Shown here: piece by piece, positions 6,337 to 63,039 of the stretch | Layout: the number at the start of each line of letters is the position of its first letter | Position numbering within the stretch: position 1 is the stretch's first letter | Source of the DNA: Eledone cirrhosa | Lineage: Eukaryota | DNA length: 64,000 nucleotides | Direction: 5' to 3' | NCBI GenBank assembly: GCA_964016885.1 | Contig: OZ024743.1 | Span: 292,516,001-292,580,000, forward strand | Translations under genes and position numbers: made by a program | Notes under the pieces: generated by a model | What the model was told of the DNA's origin: nothing | What the model saw: only the letters and a program-made list of their open reading frames with translations | Database searches by the model: none

Positions 6337-6465
6337 TAAAATATATAAATTGATGTATGACATACCTCAACTGTGCTGATGGTTCAATTCCAGTTTTGGC
6401 AGTCAAGACTGGAATTGAACCATCAGCACAGTTAAGGTATGTCATACATCAATTTATATATTTTA
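6337..6465. repeat. Fold-back inverted repeat (~60-bp arms) immediately 5' of an HHR
   Basis: TAAAATATATAAATTGATGTATGACATACC...GGTATGTCATACATCAATTTATATATTTTA is a near-perfect palindrome. Confidence 0.9.
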
Positions 6466-6527
6466 TCTGATGAGGACGTACTGAGGAAACAGCACAGTAC
6501 CTCCGAAATATATATAATAAAATATAT
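6456..6527 (+). ncRNA. Type I hammerhead ribozyme
   Basis: Stem I ATATATTTTAT/ATAAAATATAT (11 bp); CTGATGA 6467-6473; stem II GGA(C)GTACTG...CAGTAC(C)TCC; GAAA 6505-6508; short palindromic stem III TATATA; cleavage after TA at 6516. Confidence 0.85.
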
Positions 6528-7159
6528 TTGATTACATGAATGTCTATATTTATTAATATTTTGAATTAATATATATATATATATATATATATATATATAT
6601 GCATACATATAGATAGATAGATAGATGGATAGTTGGATAGATGGATAGATAGAGAGAGTGTGTGAGAGAGAGAGAGAGAGAGGGGAGAGAGAGAGTGGGG
6701 GGAGGCTCAAGCAATAATCATCTGATAAGACTTGTTAATCAGGCAAAACCAACAATCACTAATATGGATCTTGAGCCACCATCTGAGAAACAGGTCTTGT
6801 AACATGGTCTAACCAAATAAAGCCTAAATGTGAAACCTCCTTTCGTTCTTAATATATACACTCTGCTATAGCATTGAGTGCTAATATTGGTACCACCTTT
6901 CGACTGAATCAATTATATATGCAAAAGCCAAACAGAAATAACAAAGCAAACGACATACGCACGCACACGAGCACACACATACATATATATATGGGGGGGG
7001 GGGGGAGATAGGGAGAGTGAGAGAAATGACATCTACATGACTAGAACTGTTTCATTCACATAAAGACATCTGGACATTGCTGGTGATTTCATACGAATGA
7101 AACAATTCTAATTTTGTAGAAGTTATTTATATGTATATATAATAATTGTTTCTACTTTT

Positions 7160-7460
7160 TGGCACAAGGCCAGCAATAACCCAGTTCATTACTGGTACTT
7201 TATTTTATCGACCCCCTAAGGATTAAAGACAAAGTTAACCTCGGCGGGATTCGAACTCAGAATGGCAAGGGCCGTAACTCTATGCGTCAAAGCATAGCGT
7301 CCGACCCTCTACTGATACTGCCAATCCACCATAATATTTGTTTCTACTTTAGGCACAAGGCCAGCAATTACCCAGTGCATTACTGGTACTTTATTTTATC
7401 GACTCCGTAAGGATGGAAGGCAAAGTTAACCTCGGCGGGATTTGAACTCAGATCGTAAAA
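7160..7460 (-). mobile_element. Two adjacent tRNA-derived SINE copies (the second partial)
   Basis: Reverse complement shows a B-box (GAGTTCGAATCCCGCCGAGG) and the core GCCTT(T/C)CATCCTT...GTCGATAAAATAAAGTACCAG shared with 13675-13850. Confidence 0.8.
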
Positions 7461-7569
7461 TGATGCCTATACTCTACCAATGTATTGAGTACATTTTTTA
7501 ATTGTGGTTAAGTTCCCCCATCACCAGAGACACAACTCAGGAATCTACAAATTATATATTGTTAGACCG

Positions 7570-7830
7570 TCAAATGATATGCCTTGCGAAATTTGTTCTA
7601 GCTTTCTATGGTTAAATATAAATCAAACTAAAGTGTACAGGGCAGATTCTCCCAGGTTTCATAAGCTTTGAGTGCTTTTTATTGAGGCCACTCTATTGCA
7701 AGCATTCGGGCTAGATCTCTGGCTTCAGAATTTCTTCTTCATTGCTTCTCAACAGACTCCGGTTTTCTGGAAAAGATCATGGTTGTCTCCTTTCCTTCCC
7801 TGAATAATCAGTAAAACAATCCCTTTTCTC
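7570..7830 (-). pseudogene. Highly degenerate possible Penelope GIY-YIG C-terminal fragment
   Basis: Frameshifted minus-strand translation gives IEW..K...AY/KPGRIC-like remnants; weak similarity only. Confidence 0.3.
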
Positions 7831-8329
7831 TGTAAGTATATCATTTTGGGTGTGTTTGAGTGTATGTGTGTGTCTGTATGTTTACATGTATGTATGTAGG
7901 TAAGGATGGATGGAAGGATGGATCGATCGATATATGTATATGTGTATATGAGTGTATATATATATATATATGTTTGTAAAGTGAGAAAAGACTGTACACA
8001 GAGCCAATACCACTCTCTGACTGACAGTAACTATAACCCGCAAAGAAGAAAAGATCAATATCATCGCTAACTACTGAGCCGCAGGTTTTATGACGGAGTT
8101 ATCCCAGTTTCTTGAGTTGCCTTCTCCTAGAAGAATGCCCGGACAAAGGATAGAGGTCCTTTACTCCCAGTGGTTTAACTACGGGATCGAGTATCCAGCC
8201 CGATTATGTCTATGTCCCCGCCCATATATATATATATGCATACATGCATATGCATACATACATACATGTACATACATGCGCATGTACATACATGCGCATG
8301 TACATACATATTTACACATCTTTTTGGAT

Positions 8330-8450
8330 GGCCGTTGACTCATGAGTTCTTTGTCAGGTTTTGTTTTTTGTCCTGCAGAGTGTCCAAAGTCACCCTCCTC
8401 ACCAAGTAAACTTGGTGGGTTGCAGATTTAGTCTCCGACGACCCGACCAT
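8330..8450 (-). mobile_element. Interspersed repeat (likely SINE or non-autonomous LINE derivative); second copy at ~31935-32075
   Basis: Reverse-complement similarity to CATGGTCGGATCGTCGGTGACTAAAC...CCACCAAGTTTCCTTGGTGAGG...AAACAAAACCTGACAAAG. Confidence 0.65.
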
Positions 8451-60560: not shown

Positions 60561-60644
60561 TATATATATATATATATATATATATATATATATATATATA
60601 TATATATATATATATATATATATATATATATATATATATATATA

Positions 60645-61770
60645 TATATCCAAAATTAAGATAGATTAAAAGAATTCAATCAGAATCGAAATTGTAGGTG
60701 TCATTCCTTAACGGAATGCGCCATATCGCCCGGAAAATAAGCTCTAGGACTTTGTAGGTACGAGCATTTTATAATAACTAGGAATTGATCAACATACATA
60801 TAAATAAATATAAACATGAAAAATCACAGGAGATAATGTTTACAAGCGTGTAACCACGATGTGTAACCACGATGTGTAATATCAACACGTGGTAACGGCC
60901 AGTTTAAGATTTTGACTCGAAGTGTAAACATGGATCGCTTGATATTATTCTTCCTTGTCAATAATCCAATAATATCCACTTTCCGTGACTTACCATCTGA
61001 TTAATTGGTGAAATATATTTCTTTAATGAAATATATACAAGGAAGATTAATCATTAAAAGGTATATATTTTTGAAGTTCTAGTTAACTTTATTTATTTGT
61101 TACCTACTAGCCATGCGTGGTTACACGCTCGTAAAAATTATCTCCTGTGATTGTTCATGTTTATATTTATTTATATATATGTTGATCAATTCCTAGTTAT
61201 TATAAAATGCTCGTACCTACAAAGTCATAGAGCTTATTTTCCGGGCGATATGACGCATTCCGTTAAGGAATGACACCCACAATTTCGATTCTGATTGAAT
61301 TCTTTTAATCTATCTTAATTTTGGATATAGATATATAAATACTGCTCCTTAATTGTAGAGCTAACTCTGATGAAGGGAATTGACTGCTATTTCTAGTTGT
61401 CGAATACCTATTCACGCCACTGAAACGAAGCCGCTGTGATGTGTAATATCAACTCGTGGTAACGGCCAGTTTAAGATTTTGACTCGAAGTGTAAACATGG
61501 ATCGTTGTTATTATTCTTCCTTGTCGATAATCCAATAATATCCACTTTCCGTGTCTTACCATCTGATTAATTGGTGAAATATATTTCTTTAATGAAATAT
61601 ATACAGGGAAGATTAATCATTAAAAGGTATATATTTTTGAAGTTCTAGTTAACTTTATTTATTTGTTACCTACTAGCCATGCGTGGTTACCCGCTTGTAA
61701 AAATTATCTCCTGTGATTTTTCATGTTTATATTTATTTATATATATGTTGATCAATTCCTAGTTATTATA
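60645..61770. mobile_element. Element with inverted arm (60645-60860 / 61115-61330) and 567-bp tandem period; degenerate HHR
   Basis: GATGTGTAATATCAAC at 60871 and 61438; TCTTCCTTG TC(A/G)ATAA...GAAA TATA TA CAAGGAAGA resembles a decayed HHR. Confidence 0.7.
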
Positions 61771-61955
61771 TATATATATATATTATAGGCAACATGACCC
61801 TCCCAAAGTATAACAATATATATATATATATATATATATATATATATATATATATATATATATATATATATATATATATATAAATAAACAAGGTTTAGTA
61901 AATAATGAAAAAGTTTCAAAATAAATTTTAAAAAATTGACTTTCCTACTATAGTT

Positions 61956-62039
61956 ACCTTTACCAATCGGTTTCGAATCCCAAAAATAAAACGGAGACCA
62001 TACGGCCTTCGTTGCAAAGAAAGATTCTCGTCAGAAGGT
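61956..62039 (-). ncRNA. Type I hammerhead ribozyme
   Basis: Reverse complement of the 62416-62499 motif (stem III CCGATTGG). Confidence 0.85.
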
Positions 62040-62415
62040 TCTTTTCATTCAAAGAATATAAAATTCCTGAATTTAAATCACAAACTAGCGCTATCAAAAC
62101 TGTTCCTGGGATGAGAGTGGATGAAGAAACAGGTTTATCAAGGGCCGTAGCAAAGATAGAGGCAAAAGGAGGTAGGTCAAACTAGCCACAGCTATTGCTA
62201 GCAGCAGTCAGAACCACTAACGTTAAGAACAAAATTGGTCGTTCTGACTGCTGCTAGCAATAGCTGTGGCTAGTTTGCCCTACCTCCTTTTGCCTCTATC
62301 TTTGCTACGGCCCTTGATAAACCTGTTTCTTCATCCACTCTCATCCCAGGAACAGTTTTGATAGCGCTAGTTTGTGATTTAAATTCAGGAATTTTATATT
62401 CTTTGAATGAAAAGA

Positions 62416-62499
62416 ACCTTCTGACGAGAATCTTTCTTTGCAACGAAGGCCGTATGGTCTCCGTTTTATTTTTGGGATTCGAAACCGATCGGTAAAGGT
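62416..62499 (+). ncRNA. Type I hammerhead ribozyme with extended stem II
   Basis: ACCTT CTGACGA GAATCT...GGATTC GAAA CCGATCGG TA AAGGT. Confidence 0.88.
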
Positions 62500-63039
62500 A
62501 ACTATAGTAGGTAAAGTCAATTTTTTAAAATTTATTTTGAAACTTTTTCATTATTTGATAAACCTTGTTTATATTTGTTCTGGCTCGTTAATTTATTAAC
62601 CCGCCAGCCATTGAACCGCACTGGCATTTGGTTGGACAATACATGCGTACCTTGGCGCCTTGTGCGTGAAGGAACGTATATCCTATATATATATATATAT
62701 ATATATATATATATATATATATATATATATATATATATATATATATATATATATATACAGTATTTTCCGTTGTGTTGTAATAACTAAAAGTTTGTAGATA
62801 GCTGTTTTAGGTTATGTAACTGTTATAGAAACACGTGTCAATAAATTCCTTTCAACTAAACTGTATCCATTCAAATCTTTCTATATATATATATATATAT
62901 ATATACTATATACATTTATATATATATATATATATATATATATATATATATATATATATATATATATATATATATATATATATATAATGTATATATATAT
63001 ATATATATATATATATATATATATATATATATATATATA

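Follow-up and report, generated by a model that had tools for sequence, protein, structure and literature searches.

Hammerhead motifs in a 64-kb window

The stretch analysed here (the window) is 64 kb of AT-rich animal DNA with frequent (TA)n runs, from contig OZ024743.1 of the 2.996-Gb assembly of Eledone cirrhosa (GCA_964016885.1). A preliminary description, made from the letters alone, had noticed in it about 16 intact or near-intact type I hammerhead ribozymes (HHRs). We found that the elements carrying them fall into two classes. The first consists of 5′-truncated pseudo-long terminal repeat (pLTR) stubs of autonomous Penelope-like elements (PLEs) of the Hydra, Neptune/Nematis and, tentatively, Poseidon types; the second comprises at least five closed non-coding tandem units of about 470–620 nt, which are non-LTR retrozymes. 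The ends of their insertions point to a shared route of integration.

Using a strict descriptor (exact CUGANGA/GAAA/UH core, open stem I, three stems), we detected ten type I hammerheads in the window, with cores at 6467+, 17660-, 18314+, 42392-, 42536+, 50563-, 50866-, 51463+, 62034- and 62421+. The same descriptor, of the kind proposed as a check in the preliminary description, gave one match in ten block-wise dinucleotide shuffles of the window. This descriptor is a tighter version loosened once window motifs had been seen; the tighter version gave 6 window matches versus 0 in 30 shuffles, and a relaxed scan allowing one mismatch added only two motifs in the window. Judged by the shuffles and a genome-wide reversed-pattern control, the motifs exceed chance.

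Ten of the 16 motifs originally listed passed the strict core test. Three more have complete cores with flawed stems: in the 20322 motif, a minimal PLE hammerhead, stem I is weak, and in those at 51850 and 51964 one base of stem II is mismatched and stem I is offset. The remaining three (43684, 44446 and 44985) read CUGCCGA (A6C); their stem II region spans about 95 nt and their stem I is out of register, so they are not canonical. These three failed the core test, as did a family lacking GAAA. About 12 further decayed or core-deficient motifs were recognized by eye. The hammerhead-bearing families number about 14, which bears out the minimum of eight claimed at the outset, although family A is related to B and F6467 to F42536.

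In ten motifs of the F6467/F42536 superfamily (Hydra-type), 99.4% of stem cells were paired, compared with 36–60% in slid controls, and two-sided changes occurred in five of six stem II pairs. Because the descriptor had picked these ten motifs, which were hence already selected for pairing, this result shows covariation between subfamilies rather than discovery. On sequence grounds, the predicted self-cutting hammerhead motifs are a real feature, mostly of known kinds.

Closed non-coding units are retrozymes

Families A, B, F62421, F44450 and F55542 close head to tail on many contigs with no open reading frame (ORF) between units, and their units measure 470, about 430–490, 480, 539 and about 620 nt, respectively. 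The longest ATG frames in the five span 44–71 amino acids (71 in B). Each unit carries one hammerhead or hammerhead-like motif, and the units are dispersed as arrays of 1–4.6 units. First-look candidates, spread over many contigs, numbered 1,429 for A, 1,637 for F62421 and 3,386 for F44450; A and F62421 are young, their best copies being 98–100% identical on many contigs.

A, B and F62421 combine this architecture with a strict hammerhead. Folded as circular monomers, A and B gave z scores of -11.3 and -13.5, and the other families -2.9 to -4.1, against -2.75 for an ORF control. F44450 and F55542 share the architecture but have altered cores. Core position 6 is C in 12 of 12 F44450 copies examined, and a competing pairing hides the core; its hammerhead may be inactive. 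GAAA was absent, by eye, from all eight F55542 copies read. Both families are still found as tandem and inverted insertions, which suggests that cleavage may be dispensable for spread.

In a test for a rolling-circle template, array-wide variants numbered 9 in F62421, 31 in F44450 and 0 in A. Of four runs of unknown kind, one contained a single 499-nt contig that loops back over 470 nt and another a diverged 497-nt contig; these were not used as evidence of expression because collapsed tandem DNA gives the same picture. Two further closed hammerhead units occur outside the window (L047 5969-8047; L020 1000-1600; L040 2900-3300; L078 1-1300): one is 311 nt long with a CGCG loop and units 99.8–100% identical, and the other has a CUAAUUAG loop.

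Several other families are termini of Penelope-like elements

Four of the hammerhead features, namely F42536, F55769, the 20322 motif and the element at 59.6–60.6 kb, are ends of autonomous PLEs. These PLEs are of three types and have a minimal type I hammerhead in their pLTR; most copies are 5′-truncated to a stub. The description of the hammerhead units as non-coding and 170–640 bp long was half right, since several are truncated ends of protein-coding PLEs. The joint retrozyme and PLE reading is supported, with five closed non-coding units and PLE termini with ORFs upstream.

A GIY-YIG frame found beside a family-A locus is part of a young Neptune/Nematis-type PLE, of which the element at 59663-60565 is a decayed two-armed stub. 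Its endonuclease gave 34,447 first-look candidates, the 150 scored being 99–100% identical; at least 150 near-identical copies exist, several in open frames over 1,270 amino acids. The element forms 4,286-nt tandem units with a minimal hammerhead between ORFs, and its 1,267-amino-acid ORF contains a reverse transcriptase (RT), a CX4CxxC linker and GIY-YIG. All features used to assign Neptune/Nematis membership were found: RT, CX2-5CxxC linker, GIY-YIG with CCHH, pLTR hammerhead, and tandem and inverted copies.

Walking upstream from F42536 led to an endonuclease and then to a copy consisting of a pLTR, a 743-amino-acid ORF, a 1.4-kb 3′ untranslated region (UTR) and a second pLTR. By eye, this ORF (L182, L205 and L206) contains RWR, DKT, CxCX5C, CxxC and CxH and lacks CCHH; apart from RWR in place of RWK, the Hydra-clade motifs are exact, and the hammerhead and (TA)n preference are present. 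The Hydra-type endonuclease gave 67,568 first-look candidates, and another one lies 1.4 kb upstream of the F55769 hammerhead in L042. The 20322 motif (3,869 candidates) precedes a PLE RT, with RT motifs downstream in the broken copies L083-L089; a Pfam search of the region gave RVT_1 at E 6.5e-4, below cut-off. Its Penelope/Poseidon clade label is tentative and based on motifs. The closest named relative of one PLE protein is from Octopus vulgaris (70% identity), and the sole named match of another is an Argonauta protein.

F6467, F51970 and F18314 are probably PLE termini as well, judging from their flanks and motifs. Long copies of the first two continue into UTR-like sequence (AT/CT-rich upstream of F6467) and reach no ORF; the F18314 tail has, by eye, the GAGTGCT motif of Hydra pLTRs, and this family was not traced in the genome. 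We also considered whether F42536 is an obligate palindromic 'double-hammerhead' element. All 40 loci shared a centre, but the query had spanned that centre; a query with one arm recovered single arms, variable centres and the upstream ORF, ruling the idea out. The same single arms and variable centres fail the mark of a miniature inverted-repeat transposable element (MITE) or obligate foldback, namely fixed terminal inverted repeats in all copies. F42536 arms differ by 1.9 positions within a locus and 2.4 between loci (13/14 loci), and are thus slightly closer to each other.

Retrozymes carry the insertion ends of PLEs

To compare insertions we used loci chosen as the best-scoring matches. 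Each tallied family has two fixed 3′ ends and variable 5′ ends, the two 3′ sites being 70 nt apart in A, 110 in F62421, 80 in F44450, 26 in the L047 family, 60 in the Neptune type and 85 in F42536. The 3′ ends fell on one of the two sites in 45 of 45 cases for A, F62421 and F44450 together, and in 40 of 43 for the Neptune type. Alternating TA adjoins 77 of 85 tallied ends, against a background of 10.8%, which bears out the (TA)n boundaries and targeting first proposed. Two-armed insertions had one long and one short end at 20/20 retrozyme loci (L072 being complex), 10/10 Neptune loci (the uninformative L054 and L057 excluded) and 31/31 F42536 rows; every tallied inverted insertion (61/61) therefore has one arm per site, with end pairs counted from tables, two of them by eye. 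Either arm may be the longer. Of the four F6467 rows, which stand outside this tally, one agrees with the pattern, another is interrupted, a third is cut short at the edge of its locus and the last is the window copy.

Retrozymes thus carry the PLE signature at their ends: two RT start sites, which define a tail, 5′ truncation, an inverted 5′ copy and a microsatellite target. The sequence after most start sites is UA(U), so that 2–5 nt match (TA)n. A common TATCG start signal was rejected: it is true of A, B and the Neptune type and fails for F62421, F44450 and F42536. Many F42536/F6467 copies (L120-L146, L166-L175) are 5′-truncated at one spot, 60–75 nt upstream of the hammerhead core, which may mark a strong RT stop or a short internal transcript.

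A model for retrozyme mobilization and its alternatives

We compared these patterns with the literature (PMC7229834, bioRxiv 10.64898/2026.07.22.740005, PMC8557442, PMC11167929, PMC13282606, PMC4209133, PMC6155905, PMC8490949 and PMC7151607), each source being represented by the parts accessible to us. Work on a purified PLE, which is predicted to form a dimer, showed that it cuts and extends both DNA strands, that it starts at two internal RNA sites delimiting the PLE-specific tail, and that insertion is as efficient when the hammerhead is dead (PMC11167929). By analogy with known families, intact hammerheads would cut multimeric retrozyme transcripts to monomers; they would probably act as dimers joined through the palindromic loop III, and the monomers may circularize. 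A PLE RT/GIY-YIG complex would cut both strands of (TA)n, cDNA would be primed at two internal RNA start sites, one per DNA end, and joining of the two cDNAs would yield a head-to-head inverted insertion. Retrozyme RNAs bearing such a pair of start sites could then be copied in trans.

We favour the reading, at a probability of roughly 0.85, that this genome is saturated with PLEs and with non-autonomous cargo sharing PLE-type insertion. That retrozymes are copied in trans by a PLE RT is, in our judgement, very probable, and that inverted insertions arise from one priming per cut end, similar to what is termed twin priming in L1 work, is likely. The pairing of one site with each arm suggests genomic evidence for the proposed mobilization of retrozymes by PLEs; hammerhead cleavage is probably not needed for insertion.

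Several results weigh against this reading. Comparison of the five retrozymes with 12 PLE termini gave no significant match, so no partner PLE is tied to them by sequence. Family A diverges by 0.53% within arrays and 0.52% between them, with 0 array-wide variants, and one of its variants is mirrored in both arms at L003; this pattern fits a linear multimer as template as well as a circle. The inverted arm of the window F6467 copy ends at neither site, and the choice of best-scoring loci favours young copies. The clade labels come from motifs, not trees, and Pfam gave no domain in the Neptune- and Hydra-type ORFs, two of the three ORFs searched. An Rfam scan of the window, the other check put forward in the preliminary description, went against it, with no match at the gathering score; among the best 150 of 330 matches at E<=5, three family-A copies were the only hammerhead ones, and the best hammerhead score among the matches listed was 31.8 bits (HH9) against a threshold of 52. 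Minimum-energy folds of eight single motifs mostly did not form the open core.

The most serious alternative keeps the same actors in another geometry: the inverted arm would arise by fold-back and copying of the first cDNA, and resolution by the endonuclease, not a second priming, would leave the tail. The arms share variants, including the one mirrored in L003, a fixed centre is frequent in F42536, and Craig et al. ascribe the tail to endonuclease-mediated resolution. By contrast, the longer arm may be either of the two (L106, L117, L075), same-site pairs are absent from the 61 insertions, and both strands are extended from two start sites in vitro (PMC11167929). We regard fold-back as unlikely, yet it is the strongest rival to one priming per cut end.

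A second possibility, raised in the preliminary description itself, is that all families are merely termini of autonomous PLEs and none is independently amplified. This is true of at least four families and likely of three more, and many PLE families of the genome lie outside our sample, but head-to-tail closure without an ORF on many contigs contradicts it for A, B, F62421, F44450 and F55542, which are amplified independently; as a general account it is very improbable. Least probable of all is satellite or MITE-like DNA spread by DNA-level duplication with hammerheads as relics: TA-flanked palindromes do look like MITEs, two families have non-canonical cores and some arrays (for example, L049) may be local growth, but the fixed 3′ and variable 5′ ends, the two-site rule as in coding PLEs, the variable inversion points and single arms recovered by an unbiased search, and the compensatory stem changes speak against it.

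Hammerhead load of the genome

To place the window in context, we sampled 40 stretches of 10 kb at regular positions on 14 contigs (400 kb). This sample held 44 strict motifs, with none in three shuffles, a density of 110 per Mb (bootstrap 62–165); 13 of the 44 came from two arrays, and 82 per Mb remained once those two stretches were removed. The window, at 156 per Mb, lies inside the sampled range and is an ordinary, typical sample of this genome. An exact whole-genome count of one superfamily gave 38,129 + 37,771 = 75,900 matches, with 0 for a reversed control; the 11 matches of that superfamily in the sample predicted 82,000. This agreement supports the scaling, which implies about 3×10^5 strict motifs genome-wide, leaving out Neptune- and Poseidon-type motifs missed by the descriptor. 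The very large load anticipated in the preliminary description is thus borne out.

According to the published sources accessible to us, axolotl (28.2-Gb genome) has 126,247 hammerheads; a coral has over 6,000, which belong to 16 families, and a mussel about 5,000. For Xenopus tropicalis the published figure is about 9,000 minimal motifs, and for Schistosoma it is given as 'thousands'. Descriptors differ between studies, so the comparison is rough and no record is claimed. A more sweeping combined reading is tentative and, in our view, rather doubtful: that this is the largest and most diverse animal hammerhead load counted (about 3×10^5 intact, about 100 per Mb), that the ends show retrozymes to be cargo of a PLE dimer using each of two RNA start sites once per insertion, as a general twin-priming rule, and that lineages go on spreading after loss of the core or a shift to an A6C, possibly Mn2+-preferring, core.

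The enzyme that moves animal retrozymes, the route of tandem and inverted PLE insertion and the role of the hammerhead are stated to be open in the accessible parts of PMC7229834, PMC8557442 and bioRxiv 10.64898/2026.07.22.740005. In this genome there are an intact PLE of young age, retrozyme families whose copies are nearly identical and whose start sites are mapped, and core-deficient families that serve as natural controls, making all three questions testable; its interest lies in scale and in the direct testability of retrozyme mobilization and hammerhead dispensability. Repeat libraries for cephalopods could list TA-flanked palindromic stubs wrongly as MITEs or short interspersed elements (SINEs), and inverted pairs in their hundreds of thousands would be a potential source of double-stranded RNA.

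Features of the window

Table 1 Hammerhead-bearing features of the 64-kb window
Feature	Coordinates	Strand	Remarks
Decayed minimal HHR stub, CG loop III	6200..6308	+	Related to 41608-41716(-); origin not traced
F6467, probable Hydra-type pLTR stub	6337..6570	+	Strict HHR 6456-6527; short inverted arm 6337-6395; F42536 superfamily
Retrozyme B, about 1.3 units	17333..17950	-	Strict HHR 17624-17666, U-U at stem II base
F18314, two-armed, probable Hydra-type pLTR	18156..18448	+	HHR 18309-18399, 62-nt stem II region
Decayed Penelope/Poseidon-type PLE junction (tentative label)	19435..21050	-	3′ region, pLTR with minimal HHR (~20322-20363), ORF start
Older F62421 relative, ~75% identical, ~1.2 units	39510..40115	-	Decayed HHR core
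Decayed minimal HHR stub	41608..41716	-	G12 changed
F42536, inverted pair of Hydra-clade pLTR stubs	42294..42731	.	Strict HHRs 42335-42400(-), 42528-42593(+); short end left, long end right
Retrozyme F44450	43437..45283	.	1.63 units (-) + 1.81 units (+); three A6C hammerhead-like motifs
F45988, inverted pair, GUAC loop	45938..46270	.	Each HHR one core change; intact copies elsewhere; origin not traced
F55542-family fragment	49857..50020	+	CUGACGA without GAAA
Retrozyme A, 1.18 units ending at long site + 0.35 unit	50233..50948	-	Strict HHRs 50526-50570, 50829-50873; copies 99% identical
Retrozyme A, opposite arm, ends at short site	51357..51724	+	Strict HHR 51456-51500
F51970, inverted pair, probable PLE pLTR stub	51813..52128	.	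Complete cores, imperfect stems; 1,737 candidates
Retrozyme F55542, CT-rich, tandem + inverted	54672..55604	.	Core without GAAA
F55769, pLTR stub of second Hydra-type family	55660..56200	-	Cleavage triplet mutated here, strict in L042
Neptune/Nematis-type PLE, two-armed 3′ stub	59663..60565	.	Endonuclease C-terminus (60080-60343, -), decayed HHR near 60330; short end left, long end right
Retrozyme F62421, inverted arms 0.69 + 0.99 units	61884..62686	.	Strict HHRs 61956-62039(-), 62416-62499(+); 53-nt stem II region; copies 98-99% identical

Around the family-A arms, a 430-nt flank (50948-51357 and 52624-53053) is duplicated in inverted orientation at 95% identity, perhaps by rearrangement at insertion. 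The Poseidon-type PLE (19435-21050 (-), L083-L089) is C-rich and GC-rich relative to the host; it presumably resembles PLEs of cartilaginous fish, and horizontal transfer is possible. More PLE remnants lie at 38636-38785 (-), 58464-58640 (+), 46290-46800, 42750-42960 and 61777-61815; they comprise pieces of Hydra-type endonuclease, one Hydra-type 3′ UTR that lacks a canonical hammerhead, and stubs from two families of the Neptune type. TA-bounded inverted repeats without a clear hammerhead, of families not traced, occupy 18795-19086, 60633-61770, 21698-21775 and 39245-39286.

A broken long interspersed element at 32600-36000 (+), with apurinic/apyrimidinic (AP) endonuclease and RT frames and a GC content of 55%, is one that we take to be RTE-like. 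Positions 26662-28309 and 30058-31156 hold a G-skewed minisatellite, made of 40 copies of a 40-nt repeat, and a tract rich in (TGG)n that includes a 67-nt repeat. A very abundant short repeat, probably a SINE, occurs at 7138-7460, 13673-13861, 21857-21950 and 39452-39512, with 62 matches in 25 of the 40 sampled stretches, and the window starts with an exact 111-nt direct repeat (1-111 and 2010-2120, 2,009 nt apart).

Comparison with known systems

The feature is real and less exotic than first thought, as about half of its families are PLE stubs. Earlier work already describes hammerheads in the pLTRs of PLEs, retrozymes, a bias towards (TA)n, inverted copies and a one-sided tail. The system is not uncatalogued in kind, as had been thought possible: catalogued cases include a (TA)n-preferring Hydra family, Hydra-1_Obim of Octopus bimaculoides (one family, in the accessible part of the PMC8557442 supplement). 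Our search, which covered sources other than most subscription journals, Repbase and Dfam, found no published octopod hammerhead census or one-site-per-arm rule for retrozymes; the supplements of PMC7229834 and bioRxiv 10.64898/2026.07.22.740005, outside the literature compared, may bear on novelty. The words hammerhead, ribozyme and retrozyme are absent from the accessible main text of the O. vulgaris repeat annotation.

Similar to metazoan non-LTR retrozymes, the closed units are non-coding tandem repeats with one type I HHR each, GC under 50% and PLEs alongside (PMC7229834; bioRxiv 10.64898/2026.07.22.740005), and A and B fold as highly paired circles. Metazoan retrozymes were first described at 150–450 nt, and at 51–972 in the preprint, compared with 470–620 nt here. 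Unlike them, several families here have long stem II inserts or non-canonical cores, and the two fixed 3′ ends, (TA)n junctions and inverted arms seen here are not reported for metazoan retrozymes in the accessible parts of those two sources. F44450 shares C at core position 6 with the natural A6C hammerhead variant but differs from it in its 95-nt stem II region, off-register stem I and core-hiding pairing (PMC7151607).

The F42536 PLE matches the Hydra clade in a C-terminal GIY-YIG without CCHH, RWK-like and DKT motifs, CxCX5C, CxxC/CxH, hammerhead and (TA)n; that clade was described from a few families under 3 kb (PMC8557442), whereas here the unit reaches about 4 kb, its 3′ UTR measures 1.4 kb and its pLTR is clear. 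The endonuclease candidates, 67,568 at first look, and the 75,900 exact motif matches also set the Hydra-type elements here apart. The young PLE agrees with Neptune/Nematis elements in RT, CX2-5CxxC linker, GIY-YIG with CCHH, partial tandems, inverted 5′-truncated copies and a tail, which is 60 nt here versus 30–40 in known members. The pairing of one site with each arm, found here, is not reported for PAc, a Poseidon element of Anolis, in the accessible main text of PMC11167929, and PAc starts at a site that lacks homology to the cut DNA, whereas here the sequence after most start sites matches (TA)n over 2–5 nt. As in PAc, two internal RT start sites define the tail, targets are AT-rich and, for PAc in vitro, the hammerhead is dispensable (PMC11167929).

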